Below are positions 4,700-44,384 of a DNA stretch of 44,384 bases, piece after piece. Numbering within the stretch: position 1 is the stretch's first letter; every line of letters starts with the position of its first letter. The stretch is from a virus: positions 1 through 44,384 of IMG/VR virus record IMGVR_UViG_3300045988_049142; one strand, written 5' to 3'. Under the pieces are notes generated by a model. That model worked only from the letters and a program-made list of their open reading frames with translations, had not been told where the DNA came from and made no database searches. The position numbers and the translations under genes are program-made.

Positions 4700-5588
4700 T
4701 CCGCCCTCCTAAAAGATCCATCTGCCCGCTGATAATGCCATCCTCCATCCACCAGTGCCACCATGACATGATATCTCCCTTTGCGGCCTGCTTTGGGTGC
4801 TTATCAAGATAGTGCTGCAGCGCCCGCATATACGCATCCTGATATTTCGGCCAACGCGCGAACTCGCGGGATCTGGACGCGCCGCCCATCGGGCAGCCTA
4901 CGCACCCCACGCGGTTAAATCCCATGTCGTAGCAGGGGTTATAAGCAAGGTTCTCGCCCCGGATAAACTCCCACACGTCGGTATTTGTCCAGTGGATGAT
5001 CGGGTTTACGATCGTGCTGCCCCGCACTTTGCACGCAGAAATAAATTTGTCATCATGCTCGATAGGGCTGCGACGCACGTCATCCTCAAACAGTTCAGCC
5101 GCATTTTCTGCATTGATTCTGTAACTGTCCGCCTTGGTCTTTCCGCGCGTCTCAAGCTCCCCTCGAGACGCGCGCTGCGAACTCTCATCGGCGCGAACGC
5201 CAGTAGCGATAGCTCGGTTTGCCCCGCCCGTCTCCTTGAGCACCGCGCAGCAAAATCGCCGCAACCTTGTCGGCAAGCCTTTATCGCCGATCAGCTTCCA
5301 CATGCTCGTCCGCTCGCCCTTGTACGTCGGCATGTTTACATAGCACTTCACGCCAGTCAGCTCCAACTCGTGCATCTGCTGGCGCACATACCGCACGGTT
5401 TCCGGCGCATCCGCCGTCGTGTGCGAGTGCTGTACCTCGTAAGGGATTCCCGCGCGCCTTGCAAGCTCCAGCAGCACAAGGCTGTCTTTGCCGCCGGAAT
5501 TGCAGATAAGCAGAGTCTGCTTGTAGTAGTGCAGGCTCATTCGGCTGCCGAGCTGCAAAAGGTTGATTGCCTGCTGTTCTTTATCCAT
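4686..5588 (-). CDS. Phosphoadenosine-phosphosulfate (PAPS) reductase-family PP-loop protein
   Basis: 300 aa, PP-loop motif NSGGKDS, C-terminal Cys cluster CVGCP, RBS GAAGGGAG. Confidence 0.8.
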   Translation of the reverse strand: MDKEQQAINLLQLGSRMSLHYYKQTLLICNSGGKDSLVLLELARRAGIPYEVQHSHTTADAPETVRYVRQQMHELELTGVKCYVNMPTYKGERTSMWKLIGDKGLPTRLRRFCCAVLKETGGANRAIATGVRADESSQRASRGELETRGKTKADSYRINAENAAELFEDDVRRSPIEHDDKFISACKVRGSTIVNPIIHWTNTDVWEFIRGENLAYNPCYDMGFNRVGCVGCPMGGASRSREFARWPKYQDAYMRALQHYLDKHPKQAAKGDIMSWWHWWMEDGIISGQMDLLGGRNDAD

Positions 5589-5657: not shown

Positions 5658-7514
5658 TCATTTCTCCCCAAACCACTTTTTCGTCACCGCAATGGGAAAC
5701 GGCTCGATTTCGCTTGCCCACCGCGCCGTGCCTTTGCCGTGTATGCGCTCCCAGATCAGCGGGAAACCTGCGATGCCGTCAAACAAGCTCCCCAGCGTCG
5801 CGCCCTCCGGCAGATACCGCGCCATGCGCCGCAGCATCCAGTCCCAGAAGGGCAGGGCGATGGAGTTGCCCAGTGCCTTGTACCGTGGGCTGTCCGCGTC
5901 CTTGTGCTTCTTTCCCTTTTCGTCCGTCCACTCGCCGATATCCGTCCAGTGATCGGGGAATCCTTGCAGCCGCTCGCACTCCATCGGCGTCAGGCGGCGC
6001 ACGACCATGTTCTGCCGGACTGTATTATTCAAGTTCAGGCTTTGCCCGCCGCTTTCTTTCGCTTGAAGCGTGCCGTTTACCTCTCCGCCCTCTCGGAAAT
6101 TGCGGCAGTCTACGCTTGCGACATACGCTGCCATATCTGCGCGGTATGGGTCGTTTCCTTTTTCCCTTAGAGATGGGGATATTTCGCTCGACACTACCAG
6201 CATATCGTTGTATGCGTCCTGCCCGTTGTAGCTCCCAGCATGAGCGCCGGGGGAAAGCGTACCCGTCACATCTTGGTATGTAAGCGGCACTTGATTGCCG
6301 CCTGTTCCCATTCGTGCCTGCAGGCTTGGTACCTGCTCCCCGTACTCGCGGATGACGTCGCAGGCGTGTGTCATGTCCAGTGCCACCACTGGGGCAACCA
6401 CAGCTGGCTTATTCCCGCCGCACTCGGCGTTCAGTGTAGGGGACAGCTCCTCCTGATAGCCGATGCTCCGTGCCTGTTCACTGTTGCCCAGTTTAAACCC
6501 AGCACACAATACGCTGTCCCGCGCCATGCCGCCGTTCTCGTTGGCATTCAGACTGTGCCATACGCCATCCTGATCGTACACCCTTGCGCTCTGCGCATCC
6601 CAAGGATTCATGCACATTACTCCGTGGCGGTCACCAGCGGTCAGCGTGGGGGACGGGTCACCCTCTTTGCCGATTCCAAGACCATTGCCGCTGCCATCGT
6701 GGTTGCGACTTTCGCCACCGCCCTGCCATCTGGTGGCTTTGTCGTTGATGGGGATAGCCACAAATATGGCAGGATTGTTCACACCACCGCCAACACCGCC
6801 TTGCAGTGTGGGGGATTTTCCGTTTATGTTAAAAATACGCTTGCTTTGGCAATCCCAAGCCGTCATGCAGTCCCCGACTGCCGGATTAAAACCGCTTTCA
6901 GTAGCTTCGGCAAATCCTTCCCCCGCCGTTCCGCTCTCCGCAAGATGCCCAGACACGCTTTCGCGCTCAAATTGTATTTGGGCAGCGGATTCACCTCCAA
7001 AATCTGCGACAACCGAGATTCTTCGGCGACGCTGTGGGGTCCCCAGACGGATAACATCTCCTGTACGGCTGTCTCGGATGGTTTTTCCCCAGTCCTTAGC
7101 GTCGTGAGTTCGCCAAGCGATAGACCACCCATCACCGTCAATGGCTCCTGCTTTTGTCCATTTCCACTTTTCCGGCAGTCCAGATAAAGAAAATCCTGGT
7201 TCTGCGATACGCGCAATTTCTTCCAGCACGGCTGCGAAGTCTTTTCCTCTATTGCTGCTGAATGCTCCGACAACGTTCTCCCAAACGAGAAACCGAGGTC
7301 GAACCATGTCACCTGTCCGTCCATTCCGTTTGTCCTCCGCTCTCATTTCTTTTACGATGCGCACCTGCTCCATAAACAGGCCGCTTCGCGCTCCCGCCAA
7401 ACCGGCGCGTTTCCCGGCGATGGATAGATCCTGACACGGGCTGCCGCCCGTCACCACCCACACCGGCTCGATCTCCGCACCGTTTATCTTGCAGACGTCT
7501 CCCAAATGAACCAT
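5658..7514 (-). CDS. DNA (cytosine-5)-methyltransferase, circularly permuted, with an expanded target-recognition region
   Basis: 618 aa. Motif III HLGDV, IV GGSPCQDLS, VI LVWENV, VIII QRRRR, IX RRLTPMECERLQGFPD, X GNSIALP. Motifs I (LGSLFDGIAGF) and II (WASEIE) follow at the extreme C-terminus. Confidence 0.85.
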   Translation of the reverse strand: MVHLGDVCKINGAEIEPVWVVTGGSPCQDLSIAGKRAGLAGARSGLFMEQVRIVKEMRAEDKRNGRTGDMVRPRFLVWENVVGAFSSNRGKDFAAVLEEIARIAEPGFSLSGLPEKWKWTKAGAIDGDGWSIAWRTHDAKDWGKTIRDSRTGDVIRLGTPQRRRRISVVADFGGESAAQIQFERESVSGHLAESGTAGEGFAEATESGFNPAVGDCMTAWDCQSKRIFNINGKSPTLQGGVGGGVNNPAIFVAIPINDKATRWQGGGESRNHDGSGNGLGIGKEGDPSPTLTAGDRHGVMCMNPWDAQSARVYDQDGVWHSLNANENGGMARDSVLCAGFKLGNSEQARSIGYQEELSPTLNAECGGNKPAVVAPVVALDMTHACDVIREYGEQVPSLQARMGTGGNQVPLTYQDVTGTLSPGAHAGSYNGQDAYNDMLVVSSEISPSLREKGNDPYRADMAAYVASVDCRNFREGGEVNGTLQAKESGGQSLNLNNTVRQNMVVRRLTPMECERLQGFPDHWTDIGEWTDEKGKKHKDADSPRYKALGNSIALPFWDWMLRRMARYLPEGATLGSLFDGIAGFPLIWERIHGKGTARWASEIEPFPIAVTKKWFGEK

Positions 7515-33964: not shown

Positions 33965-34993
33965 GTGGCGTTTAGCTACAAAGACTATGAGGAAAGCGAG
34001 CGCGTCAGGGATCTGTACAATCAGCTCCAGCAGACGGACGCACGGAAGCCGGGAGACTGGAGCGGCGGCACATATGGACAGCAAATGCAGGACGCTCTCA
34101 GCAAGCTGCAGAACCGTGAAAAATTTAAGTACGATCTGAACGGAGACGCGCTTTACCAGCAGTACAAAGATCGGTATGTCCAGCAGGGCAAACAGGCCAT
34201 GCAGGATACGATGGGTCAAGCGGCGGCTCTTACGGGCGGCTATGGATCAACATACAGCCAGAGCGCAGGACAGCAGCAGTATAACGCATATCTGCAGAGC
34301 CTGAACGACGTAGTGCCTGAGCTGTACCAAATGGCGCTGGAACGTTATAACGCAGAAGGCGACGATCTCAAGACGCAGTACTCCCTCCTCGCGGATCGTT
34401 ACTCGCAGGAGTACGGCGAGTACCGCGACAAGGCCAGCGACTGGCAGAACCAGCGCGATTACGCCGCAAACCGGTACGACGCAGAGCGCCAGCTCGACTA
34501 TAGCCGATATGGCGACGCGAAGAGCTACGCCTATCAGGACTACAGAGATCGGATCTCGGACGAACAGTGGCAGAAGCAGTACGACGAGAACGTCCGCCAG
34601 TTCAACCAGCAGATGGCAATGGAGCAGGCTCAGCTTGCGGCTCAGAAGGCGGCGGCAAGCAGTTCGAGCCGCAGTGGTTCGTCCAGCTCTCGCAGATCCA
34701 GCAAGAGCTACGACACCCACGGGTACTCGTCCGATCAGATCAAGCAGATCCAGATGGCGGCTGGTCTCACGCAGGACGGCATTTGGGGCGCTCAGACTCA
34801 GGCGGCATATGAGAGCGGCTATAGGCCGATCAACGAGTATACCATCACAAATCGATCCGGTAACGGATGGATCAAGCTTGAAGGCGGAAGCCGATACGGT
34901 GAAACTGAGCTGATTAAGATGCTCCAGAACGGAACTGCGACCGCAACGTGGGACAACAGCAAGAAGACGATCACGTTCCACAAGAAGAAGTAA
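33965..34993 (+). CDS. Tyr/Gln/Asp-rich protein with Ser-rich linker and PG-binding-like C-terminal part
   Basis: 342 aa, GTG start with RBS AAAGGAGGGAG. Linker SSSSRSGSSSSRRSS, then IKQIQMAAGLTQDGIWGAQTQAAY. Confidence 0.65.
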   Translation: MAFSYKDYEESERVRDLYNQLQQTDARKPGDWSGGTYGQQMQDALSKLQNREKFKYDLNGDALYQQYKDRYVQQGKQAMQDTMGQAAALTGGYGSTYSQSAGQQQYNAYLQSLNDVVPELYQMALERYNAEGDDLKTQYSLLADRYSQEYGEYRDKASDWQNQRDYAANRYDAERQLDYSRYGDAKSYAYQDYRDRISDEQWQKQYDENVRQFNQQMAMEQAQLAAQKAAASSSSRSGSSSSRRSSKSYDTHGYSSDQIKQIQMAAGLTQDGIWGAQTQAAYESGYRPINEYTITNRSGNGWIKLEGGSRYGETELIKMLQNGTATATWDNSKKTITFHKKK

Positions 34994-35013
34994 CGCAAGC
35001 GAGGGAGGCAACT

Positions 35014-38000
35014 ATGACCAATAACGATCTGGCGGTGGAGCTGCTGCAGCAGCGCAAGAAGAAGCGCGAAGATCCGCAGTCTGCAACGACGCAGACCAGC
35101 ACGCAGAATATGAGCGGACAGGCCGCTCTTGCGCAGGAGCTTTTGTCTCAGCGGATTCAGGCGCGGAAAGAGCGCGAAGCGACGCAGCCCACCGTCAGCC
35201 TTCCTTCGCAGAGGATTGACCCGGCGAAGGAACGGCAGGAAAGCAATGGCAAGTTCAACGGGTGGAAGTATTTCGGCAACCTCGGAAAGACGCTCCTGAC
35301 CGGCGTTGCAAGCCTTGCACAGACGGGAGCCATGGCCGAGGATGTTGTGACTTCTGCCGTGGATACGATCTTCAAGGGTGCGAACACAAAGGGAAGTGGC
35401 CTCTTCAATGCACTGTATCACGGCCGACCGGATTGGAAGTTCCTCGGCGAGAATGGCCTCGTCGGCATCGAGCAGGAGAAAGCCTATCTCGATCAGGAAC
35501 GAGAGGCTGAAGTCGCCAAAATCAAGGATGACACTTTTGGCGGCAAGGTCGCCAAAAAGGCTGCGTCGTATGGCGGCGATATTGCATACGGAGTCGGATA
35601 CGCGATCCCCATGGCGGCGACTGCGGGAGTTGCGGCGGCACCTATCGTCAACGGCGTAGCGACATCAACGGAGGCGCTTGCAAATCTTGGCGCGTCCGTC
35701 GTGGAAAGTTCCGGTGTGCTGAATGCTCTTGGGAAAGGGTTTCGCGACACGCTAAGATCCAAGGACTACTGGATGGCTTTTACATCCGAAGTCGGCGCAG
35801 ACTATCAGGAGGCGCTTTCCGACGGCGCGAGTACGGGCGAAGCCATGAACTATGCCATCGCCACCAGCCTCCTTAACTCTGTGATCGAGGTCGGCGGCGG
35901 TATCCAGAAGGTACCGGAGAACTTCAGCGTAAAAAATCTCCTGCGCAGCGCCGCAGAGGAAGGCATGGAGGAGATCTGGCAAGGCCCCGTCGGGCGCACG
36001 ATGCAGAACGTCGTTTACGGCGCAAACAACCCAATTGTGTCCACAACGGATGACCGCGCGATCTTTAACCCTGTGACGTCTGCACAGGAGTTTGCGGGCG
36101 GCTTTACGGTCGGCGGTATTCTGTCCGGCGCGCAGATGGCCGCTGGCAAGGCGGCGAACAGCATCTACAGCAAGCAGGTCGAGAAGCAGAGCCAGCGCTA
36201 TGAACAGGCACAGGCGCGCGTGAAAGAGCTGTCGGGGGTCAAGGGGACGTACCAGACCGGGGAGAACGGGAAGACCACTGTCGGCGGGAATGAATCGGCG
36301 ATCAAGTCCGTTGTGAAGGGCGGGCAAATCGAGATGGCAAACGGCGAGGTCGTGTCCCCCGACAAGGTAAAGTTCGCGGATCGGAACACCGCCGATCTCT
36401 ACGAGGGCGCAATTAGCCGCGCGGCGAACGCAGGAGCGGCAAATGTCTTTATCGACTCCTACACCGGAGGCGACGTGAGCCGCTATCTGCTGGGGATGCA
36501 GGAGGCCTACGAGGACGGGCGCGCCGGAGTCGTGACCGAGAAGCGCGGTACGTTTGCCGATGATCTGACGGACGCACAGCGCACGGCGGCGTGGAATCAG
36601 GGCGCGGCTGATGGGCTGCAGTCCTTCCGGTCGGACACCGGCCTCGGTGAGAACGGGAGCGACGCGTGGACGCAGGTACAGCAGAATCAGGCTGTAAAGA
36701 GCAATCCCCGTCTGCGCACGGGCTTTACAGCGATGTACCAGGCTGGCCTAAGCGGCAAGTCGCTGACTGACGTAAAGAGCGATGCGGCGCGTTACATCCC
36801 CCCTTCCGTACAGACGGCGGCGTATCAGGCCGGTCTTGCCGATGCGGCAAGTAACTTGGCGCGGGAAAAGGCTGGCGTGAAGTTGGTTACGAAGTCCAAC
36901 GAGGCCGGCCTTGTCGACAACGATTACAGCAAAAAGCTCGCAAACAACGATACAGGAACTGCACGTGTGCTGGGATCTCTCGCAAGCGACATGGGCGTTC
37001 GAATCGAGATCGTGCCGCAGGTGCAGGGCGGCGCGGCGAACGGCAAGTACGTCAAGGGTACGAATACCGTCCTGCTTGCGGCTGATGCGGAAAACCCGCT
37101 TTCCTTTGTCGCGGCGCATGAGGTAACGCACAGGATGCAGGATGCCGCGCCGACAGAGTACCGCGCATATCGCGATGCCGTGATGGAGTACCAGTCGAGC
37201 GAACTGGGCGATGACACTACCGCAAGCATGGTGGAGCGCTATCGCGAGGCAAGCCGAGAGGCTGGTGTTACGCTGACGCAGGAAGAGGCCATGGACGAGA
37301 TCGCGGCAGACTTTACCGCGAAGATGATTAACGACACGGATCTGTTCGGGCGGTTTGCCGACAAAAACCGCTCTGTGGCCGGCAAGTTGCTCGATGGGCT
37401 GAAGTCGTTTATTTCCCGCGTGAAGACCCTCTTCACCGGCAAGGCACGGGACAAGGCTGCGCAGAAAGCCTATGGCAAGAACTTCGCGGATCTGCAGAAG
37501 GTCGCAGACCTTTGGCAGACGGCGTATGACAAGGCGGCGGAGACGATCCGCGAATCGACGAATGCAGTAACTGCAAATGCTGATGAATCTGCGAAGCTGC
37601 AGATTCGCCGTAAGTATTGGAAGCCGCAACTTCGCAGTGACGAATGGGCATTGCTGAACCGAAAACTCGACGAGGAAATCGGGAGCAGTGAACAGTATCT
37701 TGACGAATCAACGAAATGGCTGTATGCTGATGAAAAAGGCGTACAGGTGTTCGCTCTGTACGGGATCGGCGACGGCACGGAAGCTACGCCGCTGTATGCG
37801 GTCGGTGGGAAGCAGGCTGATGCATGCAGTGTGGCCGTGGCTGAATATATTGAGAGGAGAGAAAAATATGACAGAAATGGAGGATCTGCTGATTCGTGGG
37901 TTGAGCTGCTTTGGAGTAAGAAAGGGAGCCGGAGCGGAAATCTTCCTCAGGCTCAAGGGCCAGCCGGAGACGCAGGAGCAGTTTATGGACTACATGGCGG

Positions 38001-41000
38001 ATCACAGAACGGCAACGTCAGAGGAACTTCTGGCCGAAGCGCGCCGGATCAGCGGGAAGTAAAGGAAAAGTTCTCCCTGCGAGCACCGGTAGAACGGACA
38101 AAAGATCTCGTGGCCGTCCACAACCTGACGGAACAGAACCTGCGGGATGCGTTCTATTTGGGTGGGCTGCCGATGCCAAGTATCGCAGTCGTCAAGGCGG
38201 CACAGGGACACAGCATGTACGGGCCGATCTCCATCGTGTTCGGACGCGAGAGCATCGACCCGCAGACGGACAGCCGGAACAAGATTTACGGCGGCGACGC
38301 GTATACGCCGACGGCCCCGGCGGTGGAATATCCAGTGAACTACGACCGGATGCGCGCCGTGGAAAAGCGGCTCGCGGGGCTGAGCGAGAAGGTCGCGGGC
38401 GGCGTATTCCGCAACGACAGCGCATTGCAGCGCGCAGGCGTTGGCGAAGAGAGCGGCATGAGCGCGCCGGAGCTGGCGGACAAGCTCGCGCGGGACGACA
38501 GTATTCGCGCGGCGTATCTGGCCGATCAGGGGAAAACGCTGGAGCCGGTCATGCAGGCAAAGGAGTTCAACCGATACGGCAATGACTCACTATCGAAGCT
38601 TGTGCAGAAAATCGGCGTGCAAAAGCTGGCGGACATCGAGGCGAGCATGGAAGCGGGCGACTATCAGCCGGTGCAGGAGATCGAGGACACGGTGCGCCAG
38701 ATTATCCGCGACAGCTACGAAGAGCAGCACCGCAGATTCCTCGACCGGAAACCGGAGCTGAAGGAGAAGCGGATCAACTACTTTATGGAGAACAATGTCC
38801 ACACATACACGGTGGAGAATTTCGTCCGAAACGCATGGGAATACTATCAGGACCAGGGCGCGACGACGAGCGAGATCGACCGGTGGGCGACCAGCGACAA
38901 GCTCCATGAAGCGGCGAGCACCGAGGATGTGAAAGCGTGGCTGCTGCCGCAGCTGGAAGGCGTACTGGGCGAGCCGGGGATCTACAACGGATCGGAACGG
39001 TTCGACAAGTCCGGCAGCAAGCGGAGCTTTTCGCAGTTGCACTGGGAGTATACGCTGGAGAACATCGTGCGCGCCATGACCGAGACGCAGGCAGAGCGCG
39101 GCGGGCAGACGTTTGGCGCGTCGGCGAAGTCCATGCAGGCGGTCAGCACGGAGGACTTCCAGAGCATCGACGCGGTGAAGGCTGCGAGCGACAGGCTCGG
39201 CAAGGTGGACACAGAGCAGTACAAGGCCGACGTGGACGCAGTAGAAAAGCGCATCGAGCAGGCCACGCGGGCGGTCATGCGCGAGAACAAGGCGCACTCG
39301 GACAACCAGTTCGATGAGATGCAGATCATCGGCGACGTGATGATGCAGGCCGCGCAGGGTAAGCAGACAGAAGCAGCCATCCGGCGGGCGTTCTCGAAGG
39401 AAGGGTACTCCATCAGCAAGAGCACGGCTGCGAGAATCCGGGAGATGTTCCGCGCGGCGGCGGAGCTTCCGACGGGTTACTTCGAAGCGAAACCGCAAAG
39501 AGCCGTAGGGTTTAATGAAGTGCTTGCGGCAGTAATTCCGGATAATTCCAGTGCGGAAATTCGCCAATCTTTATCGGATGCTGGCGTTCGCGTTATCGAG
39601 TATCCTGCGGGAGACGAAACAGGTAGGTTGAATGCGGTAAACAGTGTGGACAACGCGAGATTTCAGCTCAAGTCGCAGACGCAGATCGAGACGGAAATGC
39701 GCGACATCAAGAAGGAACGCGACCGGCTCAAGACGCGCGTGAAATCGCTTGAGCGTCAGGTGGCACGCTGGAAAGCGGAAACCAAGCCCTCTATGCCGAG
39801 TTTCCGCGAGGGAGATCTGAAGAAACTCGGGAATCGGCTTATCAACGACTTCGACAGCTCGACGAAGTACAGCGAGATCAAGACGGATATGGAGAACCTC
39901 GGCAAGGCTCTTCTATCGCAGGATGTCCCTGACACAGATCTCCACGCTTATGCAGAGTATGTGGCAGAAAAGATCATCCAGAATTCTCGTGTGCTTGAGG
40001 AGGGCGGCGAGGACTTGCTGGAAATCCAAAAACACCTCAAGTCCGTCAAGCTGGCGTATACGGATGACGGATCCATCCCGGATTTTCCCGAATGGAAGAA
40101 GGCACACCGTTACATTAAGTTCGCGAAGGACGGCGGGCTTCCGGTCGACGTGGCATATCATGAGCTGACAGAGATGTTTGGCGGCGGCTATTTTCCTGAA
40201 AGCATCACGAATCCAGCAGATCAGCTTACGCGCATGGGCGAGATCTTGGAGGATATCGACAACATTTGGTCGAATCCGTATGACGAGTATCATGACATCG
40301 CAGTAACTGCCCTTGGGAACTCCTTGATTGAGAGCATGATCAGCGATGATGTCCGGCAGACCAGACCGACCTATGCAGATCGGAAGGAAAAGGAGATCGC
40401 ACACCTGAAGGATCTACTCAGCAAGACGCGGGCTGGTCGCGACGAGAAGATCAAGCAGATGCGGACGGCGTACGCCGAACGAACCAAATCCGGGGCAGAA
40501 AAGCGCAAGGCCAGGGAGATGCGCGCACGGATCGCAAGGCACACCGACGCGCTGTCTCAGAAGTTGCTCCATCCAACCGACAAACAGCATATCCCCGAAC
40601 AGCTGCGTACTCCGGTTGCCGCACTCCTCCGCGTCATTAACACGGAAAGCTCCATGAGCTACGATGAAAGCGGAAAACTCCGCAAGGGAACCACGGGATC
40701 TCCGACAAAGAGAACACAAGAGGCAATCCGCCTCCGCGAGGCGTATGACGAAATTCTCTCCAGCGATCCCAATTTTGTGGTTGATCCGGCTTTGTTCGGC
40801 GAGGGCGGACAAAGTGGTTTCATCGATCAGCTTGTCGAGCTGGGGAGCCAGCGGATCGGCGACATGAACAGCGAGCAGCTTAACGTTGTCTGGAAAGCAA
40901 TCAAGGGCATAGAAACGACCGTATCCAGCTACGACAAGGCACTTTCGAGTGGGAAGTATATATTTATCTCCCAGTGGGCAAATGATCTCAGGAGCGGCGT

Positions 41001-43734
41001 AAGTAGCCGCAAACGGTCGAACAAGAAAGCCGTACTCAGCCTGTACGATCCGCGCACATTTTTCAACGCATATGGAGACGCTGGTCTGGACGTGTTCCGC
41101 GCTCTGCGGAATGCGGAGGACACGCAGAACCGCAGGGTCGCAGAAATTGCGAAGCTGGCGGAGAAGTTTATGAGCCGCGATGTTTATAAACAGCGAAACG
41201 AGCGGCATACGTTTACGACCGAGTCCGGACAGACGATCACGCTGACGAATGACCAGATCATGAACCTTTACAACCTCGCGAATCGCGGGAAGCACTCGAT
41301 GCAGCACCTCTCTGTCGGCGGCGTTATACAGCCCTACATCAAGCGCGACGGCAAGTTGCCGGCCATCGAGCGCGGCACGAAGAGCATTCCTCTCACTGCA
41401 AACGATGTGGCTCAGATCACTGATGTCCTGACGGATGAGCAGATCAAGGTCGCAAAGGGACTGCAGAAAATCGCGTCTACCATGCTTGCCAAGTGGGGCA
41501 ACGAGGCCAGCATGGCCGTGTATGGGTACAACAAGTTTACCGAGGAGCATTATTGGCCGATCAAGTCGGCGCGAGAGTCAATTGTGCAGAACGCTGAACG
41601 CGGCGAAAATATGCCGCGCGAGATCCGCAACATGGGCAGTGCGAAAGCCCTGAACGAGAACGCCAGCAACACGCTGGATCTTGGCGGAGTGTTTGACGTT
41701 TTCACGAAAAACGCAAGCGACATGATTACTTACAGCACAATGCTCGAACCGATGGAGGACATCAACCGGCTTTTTAACTATCGCTACCGCGACTCTTCCG
41801 GGAACCTTACCGGCAAGAACGTCAAGAATGTGCTGACGGATGTTTACGGCGAACAGGCGCTGAAATACTGGCGAAACCTCATGAGTGACGTGCAGAACGG
41901 CATCGCCCACGATGATGAACCGATCACGCGCATGATCGAGAAGTTCGTCGGCAGGACAAAGGCCGCAAGCGTCGGCATGAACGCCCGCGTGGTGCTCCAG
42001 CAGCCCACGGCATTCTTCCGCGCGGCGGCGATCCTCGATCCCAGCGACATGGCAAAGGGGCTTGTCAAGGCTCCTACCAAGGGCAATGGCTGGAAGAAGG
42101 CCAAACAGTATGCGGGCATTGCCGCCATCAAGGACTCGTCCGGATTCGATCAGGCCGGTCAGTACACGATCATGAAGGGCATTCTCAACGGCGCGGATCA
42201 GACCTTTATGGACAAGCTCAGCGATGCATCCAGCGCGGCGGCGGCAAAGGCAGACGCTGTGACGTGGGGCAAGATCTGGAACGCGTGTGAGTATACCGTG
42301 CAGAAGGAAGGGCGCTATGAAGTCGGGAGCGAGGATTTTTACACTCGCACGGCAGAGGTGTTTTCCGACGTAATCGACCAGTCACAGGTCGTTGACGGGA
42401 TTCTCCAGCGCACGCAGATCATGCGCAGCGGGAACGGTTTGACGAAACAGGCCACCGCATTTATGGGTGAGCCGATGAAGTCCTTGAATATGCTCCTTAG
42501 ATCCTATGACGCGTGGCGTTATGAAACCAATCCCAGCAAGAAGAGCGCGGCTCTGAAACAGTTTGCTCGGACGAGCATCGCACTGTTGGTTACCGACGGC
42601 GTAAACGCGCTTGTCCAGTCCCTCGTCGACGCGGCGCGGAAGGATGACAAGGACAAGGATTACTGGGGCAGATACTTCGAGGTTCTGACCGGCGTAACCG
42701 GAGAGGACGATGCGGTCGCCAGCGTCCTGCTGGGCAGTAACCTGTGGGACAACATCGACCCCGTAGGACGGATTCCGTTCGCCAAGGACATCAAGTCCAT
42801 GCTTCAGGGCTACACGGTGTCCCGCATGGATGCAGACGCGGTTTCGGACTTTATTGCTGCGGCGCAGCTGTTTACAAAGGCCACACAGGGCGACGGGCAG
42901 AAGTCCACGCTCTATGCATTCAAACAGCTTCTGGTAACCGGCAGTAAGATCTTCGGCATTTCCGTCGGCAACATCGGGCGCGACACTTGGGCGGTGGCAC
43001 GAAGCATCGCGCAGGAAACCGGCAGTTACTGGGCGATGTATCAGATGGAGCAGATGATTTACCGCGTCGCTCCAGACGCGAAAAACTCATCGCGGTACTA
43101 CTCAATCCTCTATCACGCATTGCAGGATGACAAGTCCGCGTACGACCGGATTTATGCCGACCTTATCAGTAAGGGCTATACTGATAAGCAGATCAAGACC
43201 GGCATGAAAAACGCCATCAAGAACGCTGGTGGAAGCGATATGCTCTCACAGCTTGAAGACGTCGGGTTCAGCCGCGAGGATGCAGAAACCGTTATCAAAC
43301 AGCAGGAATTCAAGCAGTCCTACGGTTTCTCGTACGACGATCTTGCCGATGAATATGCTGACGGGAATATTTCTCGCCGAGAGGTAATTCGGGCGTTGCA
43401 GAACGTCGGCGGGCTATCTGCGGAAGATGCGGAGCTGAAGGCTACGGCGTACGACTGGAAAAACGATGGAGTGTCTGATGCGACGAATGCCATCGTCGAG
43501 GCGTATCAGAGTTACGGTTCCGATGCAGGATTCGACAAGAAATCCTTTGCGGAGGCGTACAAGGATCTTAACGCGGTTAAAGGCGAGGATACCGACGGCG
43601 ACGGGAAGATCGAGAAGAAGCAGTTTGTGCTGGAGGCGATCAACAAGATGAACATCTCCACAGCACAGAAGGACGCGCTCTATCGAATGAAGGGCTACGG
43701 AGAAAAACAGTTGGCAGACGCTCCGTGGCATTAA
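35014..43734 (+). CDS. Giant polyvalent-type virion/ejected protein (2,906 aa) with a zincin HExxH module
   Basis: ATG 35014 with RBS GAGGGAGG. HEVTH at 37117-37131. Many helical linker domains. A ..FSLRAP..LVAVHNL..GGLPMPSIAV.. domain as seen in phage/ICE polyvalent proteins. C-terminal DTDGDGKIE Ca-binding-like loop. Confidence 0.8.
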   Translation: MTNNDLAVELLQQRKKKREDPQSATTQTSTQNMSGQAALAQELLSQRIQARKEREATQPTVSLPSQRIDPAKERQESNGKFNGWKYFGNLGKTLLTGVASLAQTGAMAEDVVTSAVDTIFKGANTKGSGLFNALYHGRPDWKFLGENGLVGIEQEKAYLDQEREAEVAKIKDDTFGGKVAKKAASYGGDIAYGVGYAIPMAATAGVAAAPIVNGVATSTEALANLGASVVESSGVLNALGKGFRDTLRSKDYWMAFTSEVGADYQEALSDGASTGEAMNYAIATSLLNSVIEVGGGIQKVPENFSVKNLLRSAAEEGMEEIWQGPVGRTMQNVVYGANNPIVSTTDDRAIFNPVTSAQEFAGGFTVGGILSGAQMAAGKAANSIYSKQVEKQSQRYEQAQARVKELSGVKGTYQTGENGKTTVGGNESAIKSVVKGGQIEMANGEVVSPDKVKFADRNTADLYEGAISRAANAGAANVFIDSYTGGDVSRYLLGMQEAYEDGRAGVVTEKRGTFADDLTDAQRTAAWNQGAADGLQSFRSDTGLGENGSDAWTQVQQNQAVKSNPRLRTGFTAMYQAGLSGKSLTDVKSDAARYIPPSVQTAAYQAGLADAASNLAREKAGVKLVTKSNEAGLVDNDYSKKLANNDTGTARVLGSLASDMGVRIEIVPQVQGGAANGKYVKGTNTVLLAADAENPLSFVAAHEVTHRMQDAAPTEYRAYRDAVMEYQSSELGDDTTASMVERYREASREAGVTLTQEEAMDEIAADFTAKMINDTDLFGRFADKNRSVAGKLLDGLKSFISRVKTLFTGKARDKAAQKAYGKNFADLQKVADLWQTAYDKAAETIRESTNAVTANADESAKLQIRRKYWKPQLRSDEWALLNRKLDEEIGSSEQYLDESTKWLYADEKGVQVFALYGIGDGTEATPLYAVGGKQADACSVAVAEYIERREKYDRNGGSADSWVELLWSKKGSRSGNLPQAQGPAGDAGAVYGLHGGSQNGNVRGTSGRSAPDQREVKEKFSLRAPVERTKDLVAVHNLTEQNLRDAFYLGGLPMPSIAVVKAAQGHSMYGPISIVFGRESIDPQTDSRNKIYGGDAYTPTAPAVEYPVNYDRMRAVEKRLAGLSEKVAGGVFRNDSALQRAGVGEESGMSAPELADKLARDDSIRAAYLADQGKTLEPVMQAKEFNRYGNDSLSKLVQKIGVQKLADIEASMEAGDYQPVQEIEDTVRQIIRDSYEEQHRRFLDRKPELKEKRINYFMENNVHTYTVENFVRNAWEYYQDQGATTSEIDRWATSDKLHEAASTEDVKAWLLPQLEGVLGEPGIYNGSERFDKSGSKRSFSQLHWEYTLENIVRAMTETQAERGGQTFGASAKSMQAVSTEDFQSIDAVKAASDRLGKVDTEQYKADVDAVEKRIEQATRAVMRENKAHSDNQFDEMQIIGDVMMQAAQGKQTEAAIRRAFSKEGYSISKSTAARIREMFRAAAELPTGYFEAKPQRAVGFNEVLAAVIPDNSSAEIRQSLSDAGVRVIEYPAGDETGRLNAVNSVDNARFQLKSQTQIETEMRDIKKERDRLKTRVKSLERQVARWKAETKPSMPSFREGDLKKLGNRLINDFDSSTKYSEIKTDMENLGKALLSQDVPDTDLHAYAEYVAEKIIQNSRVLEEGGEDLLEIQKHLKSVKLAYTDDGSIPDFPEWKKAHRYIKFAKDGGLPVDVAYHELTEMFGGGYFPESITNPADQLTRMGEILEDIDNIWSNPYDEYHDIAVTALGNSLIESMISDDVRQTRPTYADRKEKEIAHLKDLLSKTRAGRDEKIKQMRTAYAERTKSGAEKRKAREMRARIARHTDALSQKLLHPTDKQHIPEQLRTPVAALLRVINTESSMSYDESGKLRKGTTGSPTKRTQEAIRLREAYDEILSSDPNFVVDPALFGEGGQSGFIDQLVELGSQRIGDMNSEQLNVVWKAIKGIETTVSSYDKALSSGKYIFISQWANDLRSGVSSRKRSNKKAVLSLYDPRTFFNAYGDAGLDVFRALRNAEDTQNRRVAEIAKLAEKFMSRDVYKQRNERHTFTTESGQTITLTNDQIMNLYNLANRGKHSMQHLSVGGVIQPYIKRDGKLPAIERGTKSIPLTANDVAQITDVLTDEQIKVAKGLQKIASTMLAKWGNEASMAVYGYNKFTEEHYWPIKSARESIVQNAERGENMPREIRNMGSAKALNENASNTLDLGGVFDVFTKNASDMITYSTMLEPMEDINRLFNYRYRDSSGNLTGKNVKNVLTDVYGEQALKYWRNLMSDVQNGIAHDDEPITRMIEKFVGRTKAASVGMNARVVLQQPTAFFRAAAILDPSDMAKGLVKAPTKGNGWKKAKQYAGIAAIKDSSGFDQAGQYTIMKGILNGADQTFMDKLSDASSAAAAKADAVTWGKIWNACEYTVQKEGRYEVGSEDFYTRTAEVFSDVIDQSQVVDGILQRTQIMRSGNGLTKQATAFMGEPMKSLNMLLRSYDAWRYETNPSKKSAALKQFARTSIALLVTDGVNALVQSLVDAARKDDKDKDYWGRYFEVLTGVTGEDDAVASVLLGSNLWDNIDPVGRIPFAKDIKSMLQGYTVSRMDADAVSDFIAAAQLFTKATQGDGQKSTLYAFKQLLVTGSKIFGISVGNIGRDTWAVARSIAQETGSYWAMYQMEQMIYRVAPDAKNSSRYYSILYHALQDDKSAYDRIYADLISKGYTDKQIKTGMKNAIKNAGGSDMLSQLEDVGFSREDAETVIKQQEFKQSYGFSYDDLADEYADGNISRREVIRALQNVGGLSAEDAELKATAYDWKNDGVSDATNAIVEAYQSYGSDAGFDKKSFAEAYKDLNAVKGEDTDGDGKIEKKQFVLEAINKMNISTAQKDALYRMKGYGEKQLADAPWH
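37868..38062 (+). CDS. Embedded 64-aa ORF in the +1 frame of the giant gene
   Basis: AGGAG at 37855-37859, 8 nt before the ATG. MTEMEDLLIRGLSCFGVRKGAGAEIFLRLKGQPETQEQFMDYMADHRTATSEELLAEARRISGK looks like a folded helical protein. GC3 favours this frame locally (see finding). Confidence 0.5.
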   Translation: MTEMEDLLIRGLSCFGVRKGAGAEIFLRLKGQPETQEQFMDYMADHRTATSEELLAEARRISGK

Positions 43735-43818
43735 CCCTCTGGGCGGGGAGCGGGCAACGATACGCCGACCCCGCTCCCACGCGAAAGCTCCGCAGGCTCA
43801 CGGCGCGGAGGGGAATGG

Positions 43819-44073
43819 ATGAACGCACAGCATAGGGAGATCAGAGCAAGGCTATCACGAATGGCTCCTCAGCGGGCGGTGGACTACGTCAAGGCGTTTG
43901 ATCTGCCGCCCATGGAGGAGGCGTGCATCATCGAGTGCGATGTGCGCAGGCGAAGTTGTGTAGACGTGGCGATGGATCTGTTTGTTTCTCCTGACACGAT
44001 CAAAAATTGCAGACGAAGAGCATACGGAAAGATCGCTGACGGGATCTCATACGGGATCATCGGCACAAATTGA
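43819..44073 (+). CDS. Small sigma-70 region-4-like HTH regulator (84 aa)
   Basis: RBS GGAGGGG. EEACIIECDVRRRSCVDVAMDLFVSPDTIKNCRRRAYGKI resembles a region-4/LuxR-type HTH. Followed by a terminator. Confidence 0.6.
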   Translation: MNAQHREIRARLSRMAPQRAVDYVKAFDLPPMEEACIIECDVRRRSCVDVAMDLFVSPDTIKNCRRRAYGKIADGISYGIIGTN

Positions 44074-44176: not shown

Positions 44177-44384
44177 ATGATGTATGGGTATCCGCCCGCA
44201 TACCAGCGACGCGAGATCGTACGCGTCAACGGGCGCGGCGGCGTGAACGCCTATCAGATGGCGCCAAACTGCAGCGAGCTGTTGCTGGACGAGACTGCAC
44301 CGATCGTGTGGCTTTGCCAGACAGACGGGGCGGGATACAAGACGGCGACGCCTTACGACATTGCACCCCATGTAGACGCGCCTC
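44177..44384 (+). CDS. 5' part of the junction-spanning 99-aa hypothetical protein (continues at nt 78-169)
   Basis: ATG 44177 with GAAAGGA upstream. MMYGYPPAYQRREIVRVNGRGGVNAYQMAPNCSELLLDETAPIVW.. stays open to the window end and continues in frame across the circular junction. Confidence 0.5.
   Translation, partial: MMYGYPPAYQRREIVRVNGRGGVNAYQMAPNCSELLLDETAPIVWLCQTDGAGYKTATPYDIAPHVDAP
44308..44384. repeat. Terminal overlap copy 2 (identical to 1-77)
   Basis: See copy 1. Confidence 0.95.

Follow-up and report, generated by a model that had tools for sequence, protein, structure and literature searches.

A conserved small gene nested in the inter-domain linker of a giant phage effector gene

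The genome of a temperate phage held as IMG/VR virus record IMGVR_UViG_3300045988_049142 contains a gene for a giant protein of the polyvalent class, and within that gene, in the +1 frame, lies an open reading frame (ORF) of 64 codons with its own Shine-Dalgarno sequence. We refer to the whole stretch of DNA analyzed, the 44,384 nucleotides of that record, as the window. Nucleotides 37868-38062 of the window are very probably dual-coding, with a conserved same-strand nested gene overprinted on the linker between two domains of the giant protein. Ribosomes coming from the 5′ start of the giant gene would read straight through the nested segment, and their product would there carry a disordered tether of about 65 residues, rich in glycine, arginine and serine, connecting an upstream domain that we call U to a nuclease-like domain, PBECR5. 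Other ribosomes would start independently at AGGAG-N8-ATG and end at TAA, and the +1-frame product would be a free, soluble protein of 64 amino acids, forming a four-helix bundle and subject to ordinary purifying selection. Together U, the small gene with its linker, and a short VKEKFSLR junction form a conserved and widely distributed module of polyvalent effectors in temperate phages of gut Firmicutes, with different effector domains attached behind the junction. An earlier note, made from the window alone, had offered several readings of this region. The data agree with the one in which an inter-domain linker was overprinted with, or has captured, a small gene.

A nested gene within the giant gene

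The elements of the nested gene described in the earlier note were all reproduced, namely the AGGAG, the ATG at 37868, the ORF of 64 codons and the TAA at 38060-38062, and the translation is exactly as it was quoted. The small-frame protein includes the sequences GLSCFGVR and LKGQPETQEQFMDYMADHR. The giant frame, which is -1 relative to the small ORF, is open across it, and reads RNGGSADSWVELLWSKKGSRSG... as reported. The AGGAG sits in an unpaired loop of the predicted local RNA fold. The fold around the nested start is in no way unusual (z = 0.06), and a search of the window against Rfam gave no match.

Codon statistics favor the embedded frame. The G + C content at third codon positions (GC3) had been counted by hand, and the counts are exact: 44/64 in the small frame and 27/65 in the giant frame, with 43/60 in the giant frame just downstream and 31/60 just upstream. 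Among 2863 sliding 64-codon segments of the giant gene, an excess of GC3 in the +1 frame over frame 0 of at least 0.272 is found only at 37804-37933. Frame-0 GC3 falls to 0.45 or below in the nested region and in two segments at 39472-39475, and nowhere else in the gene. An inversion this large occurring at a single place is not a common chance feature of the giant gene, which is what the earlier note had allowed it might be.

Recognizable domains resume in the giant frame right after the small gene without a start codon of their own, as had been claimed. PBECR5 begins at nucleotide 38065, and the first ATG, GTG or TTG in the giant frame after the TAA is GTG 38110, already within that domain. 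The remark that the block from ribosome binding site to stop codon is about 210 nt, and so a multiple of three, is imprecise (208-211 nt) and has no evidential weight.

A family of small proteins under purifying selection

Homologues of the 64-amino acid protein in a collection of 5.8 billion proteins are all 61-65 amino acids long. When 1.84 billion representatives were searched with a profile, 39 clusters (at 50% identity) emerged, nearly all of 63-83 amino acids, and none of them is an in-frame part of a giant protein. Scans using the small protein recovered 9 loci on viral contigs and 58 in metagenomes, with identities from 95% down to 44%. When six-frame translations of all the retrieved loci were searched with a hidden Markov model of the family, 90 full-length copies were obtained from gut metagenome and viral contigs, corresponding to 52 unique DNA sequences and 45 proteins and extending down to ~25% identity. 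Searches by blastn and tblastn against phage and plasmid collections gave no matches, nor did a scan of genome contigs for the small-protein family.

The signals for translation are conserved along with the protein. In a set of 40 unique homologous DNA sequences the ATG is present in 40/40 and the TAA in 40/40, and in 38 a Shine-Dalgarno core of four or more nucleotides is found 7-10 nt before the start. One copy that lacks its stop codon (L059) was filtered out of this set.

Substitutions in the shared nucleotides keep to the periodicity of the small frame, with entropies of 0.54, 0.45 and 0.94 at its first, second and third codon positions. The earlier note had suggested comparing the ratio of non-synonymous to synonymous substitution (dN/dS) in the two frames. 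By the method of Nei and Gojobori this is 0.08-0.3 in the small frame, against an apparent value of 1.1-2.8 in the giant frame. Constraint therefore follows the small frame, and not the residues of the giant frame. Thus the principal claim of the note, that this is a real embedded gene in the +1 frame with its own ribosome binding site and favorable coding statistics, is strongly supported by the comparative evidence.

AlphaFold2 prediction from 16 sequences gave a four-helix bundle, with a mean predicted local distance difference test score (pLDDT) of 92.9 and a predicted template modeling score (pTM) of 0.81. The small protein would be a free, soluble, cytoplasmic-looking helical bundle. A single structural neighbor was found using Foldseek, A0A8S5NB41, an uncharacterized protein of 64 amino acids from a gut myovirus. 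One of 27 remote members of the family matched the Pfam family DUF5659 with E = 0.0035 and 17.6 bits, below the gathering cut-off of 23.6. The protein encoded in the window has no match to DUF5659, and we do not assign it to that family.

The giant frame is kept free of stop codons

Over the nested gene the giant frame encodes a linker whose composition is 20% glycine, 14% arginine and 13% serine (47% for the three together), and whose sequence includes NGGSADSWVELLWSK. AlphaFold2 models give block-mean pLDDT values of 37-57 where the two frames overlap, and between residues 992 and 1051 all but two single residues score below 50.

The loci were retrieved through the small protein alone, so that there is no ascertainment bias on the giant frame. 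That frame is nevertheless free of stop codons in 90/90 full-length copies, while the third frame averages 5.5 stops. The giant frame acquires a stop codon wherever a T in the third position of a small-frame codon is followed by a codon starting with AA, AG or GA. We therefore scored the use of T at those third positions where it would leave the small-frame amino acid unchanged. Summed over sequences, T is found at 0/567 positions in stop-creating contexts, compared with 365/1097 (33%) in all other contexts. The baseline for the same contexts in ordinary genes of this phage is 13-14% (87/641 and 77/587). Taken by alignment column, T occurs in 0/31 stop-creating columns and in 29/55 others (Fisher p = 5.6e-8), and 15 of the 31 stop-creating columns vary among A, C and G.

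Six remote members of the family show the same stop-free pattern. One of these is in a genome of low G + C content, and one lies within an ORF of 2567 codons that has a different flanking sequence. The pattern is also seen in five second copies within the same loci. In such loci the two nested copies are in tandem or up to ~1 kb apart, each stop-free in the -1 frame (Table 1), suggesting that the connector module can be repeated within one gene.

The residues of the giant frame are much freer to change. Its amino acid identity is 25-59% where the small protein retains 45-83%. Dual constraint is limited to the final four or five small-ORF codons, among which the last Ile and Ser codons have invariant third positions, and it is at these codons that the giant frame enters the conserved junction motif. 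Comparison of the copies shows that both frames are maintained by selection over the shared nucleotides. What is selected in the giant frame within the overlap is, on these substitution patterns, freedom from stop codons, plus the junction motif at the 3′ end.

Table 1. Positions of the nested gene and associated features. Coordinates are those of the window, except for the last four rows, which use those of the locus named.
Feature	Position	Strand	Remarks
Giant polyvalent-protein gene	35014..43734	+	ORF open from 34948 (listed 34948..43734)
Conserved upstream domain U, aa ~890-973	37615..37866	+	...YLDESTKWLYADEKGVQVFALYGIGDGTEATPLYAVGGK...; ~85 residues; from alignment
Promoter-like TTGACG-17 nt-TATGCT, sigma-70-like	37700..37728	+	Within U; a lead only
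Shine-Dalgarno AGGAG	37855..37859	+	8 nt spacing to ATG 37868-37870
Giant-frame linker, aa 974-1034	37867..38049	+	Same nucleotides as nested gene; G/R/S-rich, predicted disordered, stop-free
Nested small gene	37868..38062	+	64 aa, +1 frame relative to giant gene, TAA 38060-38062
Junction motif QREVKEKFSLR	38050..38082	+	Giant frame; straddles last codons and TAA of small gene
PBECR5 nuclease-like domain	38065..38754	+	Pfam PF18814; starts 3 nt past TAA
Second-copy locus L015	784-975 and 1846-2040
Second-copy locus L034	4998-5192 and 5458-5652
Second-copy locus L076	707-901 and 929-1117
Second-copy locus L086	4672-4863 and 4983-5171

A constant module followed by exchangeable effector domains

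Domain U lies ahead of the nested gene in every close relative and in several remote ones. It is predicted by AlphaFold2 with moderate confidence (block-mean pLDDT 64-87) as a helix, three strands and a helix, and the last helix encodes the Shine-Dalgarno sequence of the nested gene. U has no match in Pfam and no significant match to a fold in the PDB. The best hint is RelE (2kc8), with a probability of 0.69 and TM of 0.46, which is not significant.

At the other end of the nested gene, the junction in most relatives takes the form V-K-[ED]-[KQ]-F-[SL]-[LI]-R, and the TAA of the small gene is read within this motif in the giant frame. After the junction we find at least five unrelated domain families among the relatives, including PBECR5, ART-PolyVal and LPD3-like domains. 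The small protein of one locus (L014) is 95% identical to that of the window, yet it is followed by a domain of the ART-PolyVal type and not by PBECR5. Since U, the small gene with its linker, and the junction are constant while the domain downstream varies, the effector is exchangeable.

There are at least 800 open codons on both sides of the nested gene in 17/67 loci. Relatives with three separate genes, expected if three ancestral genes had been fused by loss of stop codons, were not found among the copies, and every intact copy is fused. An apparent exception lacking the nested gene, P0036, in fact holds a truncated copy of the nested ORF. A search with the upstream domain returned short fragments only and no giant proteins, and so could not reveal relatives without the nested gene.

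The relative that is 92% identical to the window has been annotated as two genes, one of 64 amino acids and one of 1874 amino acids starting from the GTG equivalent to 38110. In this locus (L004 5686-12189, corresponding to window 37553-44057) the first ~870 codons of the giant gene are missing and the remainder abuts unrelated chromosomal genes, EamA and LytR. The read-through part was left unannotated by the gene caller.

A promoter-like sequence and chromosomal remnants

A sequence within U resembles a sigma-70 promoter, and its -10 end lies 139 nt upstream of the ATG of the small gene. It is invariant in all 36-48 unique upstream sequences, including the synonymous sites of CTT, GAC and GCT, whereas neighboring synonymous sites around the hexamers vary. 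Three of four synonymous sites in the hexamers are invariant, compared with 6/68 other codons (p ~0.005 by a hypergeometric test calculated by hand and applied post hoc). This sequence could provide independent transcription of the small gene, for example in lysogens.

A number of chromosomal loci are remnants with an intact small ORF and a truncated giant gene. These include L001-3, lying between birA and greA, together with L060-69, L075, L083 and L088. Several of the remnants start just upstream of the TTGACG and have the small ORF intact. Truncated chromosomal copies thus still carry the promoter-like sequence.

These observations raise the possibility that the small gene is transcribed autonomously, as a 'moron' or immunity gene with its promoter in U, active also in lysogens and remnants, where it might for instance neutralize U-type effectors of superinfecting relatives. 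The overlap would then be a by-product of where the gene landed. We regard this as rather unlikely, and it would refine the dual-coding explanation and not exclude it. In its favor are the conservation of TTGACG-17-TA[TC]GCT at the same distance from the ATG, including three synonymous sites, the many chromosomal remnants that retain an intact small ORF, the position at which several of them begin, and the occurrence of one small protein, P0005, on 84 contigs. However, the promoter matches at 9/12 positions, with 0.5 hits expected by chance in the scan, and conserved residues of U (L-D-E and Y-A) are encoded by the same hexamers; the test of significance is post hoc. In the L060-69 group the corresponding ratio for polymorphism (pN/pS) is poorly determined, at 0.3-0.5 on few substitutions, and a remote copy (L072) lacks the promoter motif.

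The L001 locus, in the chromosome of an Oscillospiraceae metagenome-assembled genome, has an insert of 1378 bp that carries just a fragment of a polyvalent gene, consisting of the last part of U, the nested gene, the junction and an LPD3-like domain. On either side of the insert lie direct repeats of 73 nt (5451-5523 and 6829-6901) that are 99% identical and contain the 3′ end of birA with its terminator hairpin. The arrangement looks like attL and attR of a prophage that has been almost wholly deleted, or like an orphan effector cassette. P0005 is the small protein of this locus. In L088 (4001-4459) the end of U and the first half of the nested small ORF (MVLTEAQKLLIGCLKHFEISKGKAMVV...) are fused to unrelated sequence in a chromosome, beside genes for AhpC/redoxin and SbcC.

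Because the 64-amino acid gene was found alone between birA and greA, and beside chromosomal genes in L004, we considered whether the segment might be an attP or have been copied from a host gene, in which case excision would restore the giant gene. This was rejected because the chromosomal loci carry the same arrangement of U, linker and junction, with the giant frame open, and are prophage remnants.

Frameshifting and other alternatives

The earlier note had also suggested that a shorter product might be made by frameshifting. A programmed +1 frameshift near 37860, instead of or besides independent initiation, would give a truncated N-terminal product ending in the four-helix domain. Frameshifting can be promoted by a Shine-Dalgarno-like sequence within a gene, as in prfB and dnaX. 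Moreover, two database proteins (P0019 and P0029) join U and the small protein in one frame, and three others (P0018, P0034 and P0041) change from the giant frame to the small frame midway. When the DNA of P0019 and P0029 was read, however, the fusions proved to be 1-nt differences in length at runs of A (GGGAAAAAGC; GACAAAAAAATGG) in contigs of 0.5-1.4 kb. There is no conserved slippery motif ahead of the ATG or of the TAA. The sequences just upstream of the ATG differ between copies (GAAAAATATG, AGAGAATATG, AAGGGATATG, CAAAACTATG, TCGAACAATG and others), the local RNA structure is unremarkable, and the conserved ATG and spacing of the Shine-Dalgarno sequence are those expected for initiation. 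We therefore find no support for programmed frameshifting, and consider it very improbable.

Variants with U and the small protein in frame occur at L079 819-1343 (174 amino acids) and L082 57-455 (132 amino acids), each one base off at a run of A. The L079 type is seen in three samples. Such variants may reflect genuine frameshift mutations, phase variation or errors of assembly.

Another interpretation is that the region comprises three units, an upstream gene, the 64-amino acid gene and a PBECR5 gene, with the open giant frame a matter of chance or an artefact of assembly. Gene callers do split the 92%-identical relative in this way, and the openness of the giant frame is not significant in the window alone. 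Yet the upstream part has no stop codon, PBECR5 is preceded by no start codon, and the giant frame is open in all 90 copies, which come from independent assemblies, with complete avoidance of the synonymous T that would create a stop. These observations contradict the interpretation, which is very improbable. It is equally improbable that the small ORF is untranslated, a fortuitously open frame in a low-complexity linker conserved through the giant protein or constraints on the DNA, for although the family is absent from curated libraries, its substitutions follow the small-frame codons while the giant frame evolves as if unconstrained, its fold is confidently predicted from 16 sequences, and its ATG, Shine-Dalgarno sequence and TAA are conserved down to ~25% identity.

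DISCUSSION

The evidence for a dual-coding segment comes from two directions. The small frame is that of a conserved protein with its own signals for initiation and termination, and the giant frame over the same nucleotides avoids stop codons wherever synonymous choice in the small frame would have permitted them.

A number of observations weigh against this interpretation. Chance could account for the open giant frame when the window is taken by itself, with P = 0.18 in a codon-usage model and P = 0.32 by permutation of synonymous codons; the corresponding frame of ordinary coding sequence in this phage contains ~2 stops in every 64 codons. The significance comes from the comparative data, where the loci are metagenomic and phylogenetically related. 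Counts per sequence consequently overstate independence, and the column-level test is the conservative one. In 40/67 loci the ORFs of the giant frame are shorter or truncated, many of them in bacterial chromosomes, so that the sample is partly decayed or fragmentary and the giant frame may be unexpressed there. The small protein has no match in Pfam, NCBIfam, PHROGs or the PDB, whether by sequence profile or by fold. One remote copy (L085) follows a domain that is not recognizably U. As U itself lacks a recognizable fold, the argument that the small protein is a partner of U is one of linkage. Finally, we infer translation of both frames from the sequence and from structural models.

What might the small protein do? 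The small gene stays with U while the domain downstream changes, and a partner role is thus the most economical idea. We tentatively suggest that the protein may be a cis-encoded partner of U, or of the polyprotein before packaging, acting as a chaperone, inhibitor or immunity factor. The earlier note had likewise listed an immunity-like or chaperone partner, which is a plausible functional reading. Nesting would keep the small gene genetically inseparable from U during effector swaps. A more elaborate proposal, which we put forward as a speculation with the odds clearly against it, is that of an obligate dual-coding 'connector cassette'. The four-helix family would exist only as out-of-frame inserts in inter-domain tethers, traveling with U and marking the VKEKFSLR junction at which domains are swapped by recombination. 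It would be transcribed also from the promoter within the codons of U, and the protein would be made in lysogens and remnants as an immunity factor or chaperone against injected effectors of the U type.

Some features of this arrangement have precedents. The comS gene of Bacillus subtilis is a small same-strand, out-of-frame gene inside a very large multi-domain gene, srfAB, with which it is co-expressed (PMC12915044). As in that case, single-base changes can hit one frame and be silent in the other. To our knowledge comS is a lineage-specific regulator of competence located in a module of a non-ribosomal peptide synthetase, and has not been reported as a widely conserved mobile module. In contrast, the nested gene described here lies in the inter-domain linker of a phage effector polyprotein, and belongs to a diverse family of which all examined members are nested.

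In the spanins of phage lambda Rz1 is wholly embedded in the +1 frame of Rz, both are translated and the products cooperate (PMC5295617, PMC6139136); other o-spanin genes are embedded likewise. Here too, judging from sequence, a phage gene lies wholly inside the +1 frame of another phage gene. The spanins, however, are lysis proteins for Gram-negative hosts. Rz1 has a signal sequence and is a lipoprotein, and the frame in which it is embedded encodes a functional, constrained part of Rz. In the present case the phage is one of Firmicutes, the host frame is an unconstrained disordered tether and the embedded protein is a cytoplasmic-looking helical bundle.

Polyvalent proteins are large multi-domain effectors for which packaging and injection have been proposed (Iyer et al. 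2017, PMC5512222). The giant protein resembles them in its size of ~2900 amino acids, its PBECR5 domain and HExxH motif, and in having relatives with ART-PolyVal or LPD3-like domains at the same position. The text of Iyer et al. (PMC5512222) has 0 hits for 'overlap' and 'frameshift', and describes no overlapping, embedded or frameshifted genes. The nested gene, U and the VKEKFSLR junction are not among the domains described for polyvalent proteins, as far as Pfam shows.

There is also a parallel in the polymorphic toxins of contact-dependent inhibition (CDI) and Rhs systems. There too a short motif closes a conserved region, exchanged effector domains come behind it, and a small gene directly follows a domain of the large protein. 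The truncated copies found here are similarly 'orphan-like', retaining the conserved handle together with a different effector. The CDI/Rhs immunity gene lies after the stop codon of the toxin and varies with it. Here, by contrast, the small gene is constant while the downstream domain varies, and the large protein reads through it in another frame. The linkage of the small gene to U, and not to the variable domain, is compatible with a toxin-immunity relationship but is no test of it.

Same-strand nested genes are of a known kind. What appears to be new is that every examined member of a diverse family of small proteins is overprinted on an inter-domain linker of polyvalent effectors, that the host frame is selected merely for being open, and that the nested gene is placed exactly at the junction where effectors are exchanged. 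We found no description of this nested arrangement in the literature searched. Few same-strand nested genes of bacteria and phages are well supported, and to these is now added an instance of dual coding that is conserved throughout a family, with an unusually clean division in which one frame would encode a folded protein and the other a tether selected for having no stop codons. It also has a practical consequence. Standard gene callers have no way of representing such a locus: either they overlook the small gene, or they truncate the giant gene at the internal GTG with the loss of ~1000 residues, and so polyvalent proteins and the small-protein family are probably mis-annotated in catalogues of gut phages. 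The constant module and junction, with interchangeable nuclease or ADP-ribosyltransferase domains, offer a handle on how giant injected effectors are built and diversified, and they nominate an uncharacterized protein of 64 amino acids as a likely accessory factor of such proteins.

The phage genome and the giant gene

Nucleotides 1-77 of the window are identical to 44308-44384, and the assembly is therefore circular, with a length of 44,307 bp. It represents the complete genome of a temperate phage. It includes genes for the large terminase (TerL), a P22-like portal, DUF859/Gp10_C tail proteins, an amidase endolysin, a large serine recombinase, three DNA methylases and an SNF2 helicase.

The giant gene comes after the lysis gene and occupies one fifth of the genome. 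Its true start is likely to be the ATG at 35014, behind GAGGGAGG. Within the encoded protein PBECR5 spans residues 1040-1269 (E = 1.8e-67), and phrog_22978 matches both halves. A zincin-like motif, HEVTH, is located at residue 724 (nucleotides 37117-37131), although a search of Pfam gave no MPTase match for this region of the giant protein or for its relatives. Judged by its size, phage context, PBECR5 domain and HEVTH motif, the gene product fits the polyvalent class.

The sequence KFSLR at the junction (residues 1041-1045, nucleotides 38068-38082) has a similar counterpart in RFQLK at residues 1571-1575 (nucleotides 39658-39672). Motifs of this type might mark domain boundaries, or might be processing sites for the peptidase-like region around the HEVTH motif.

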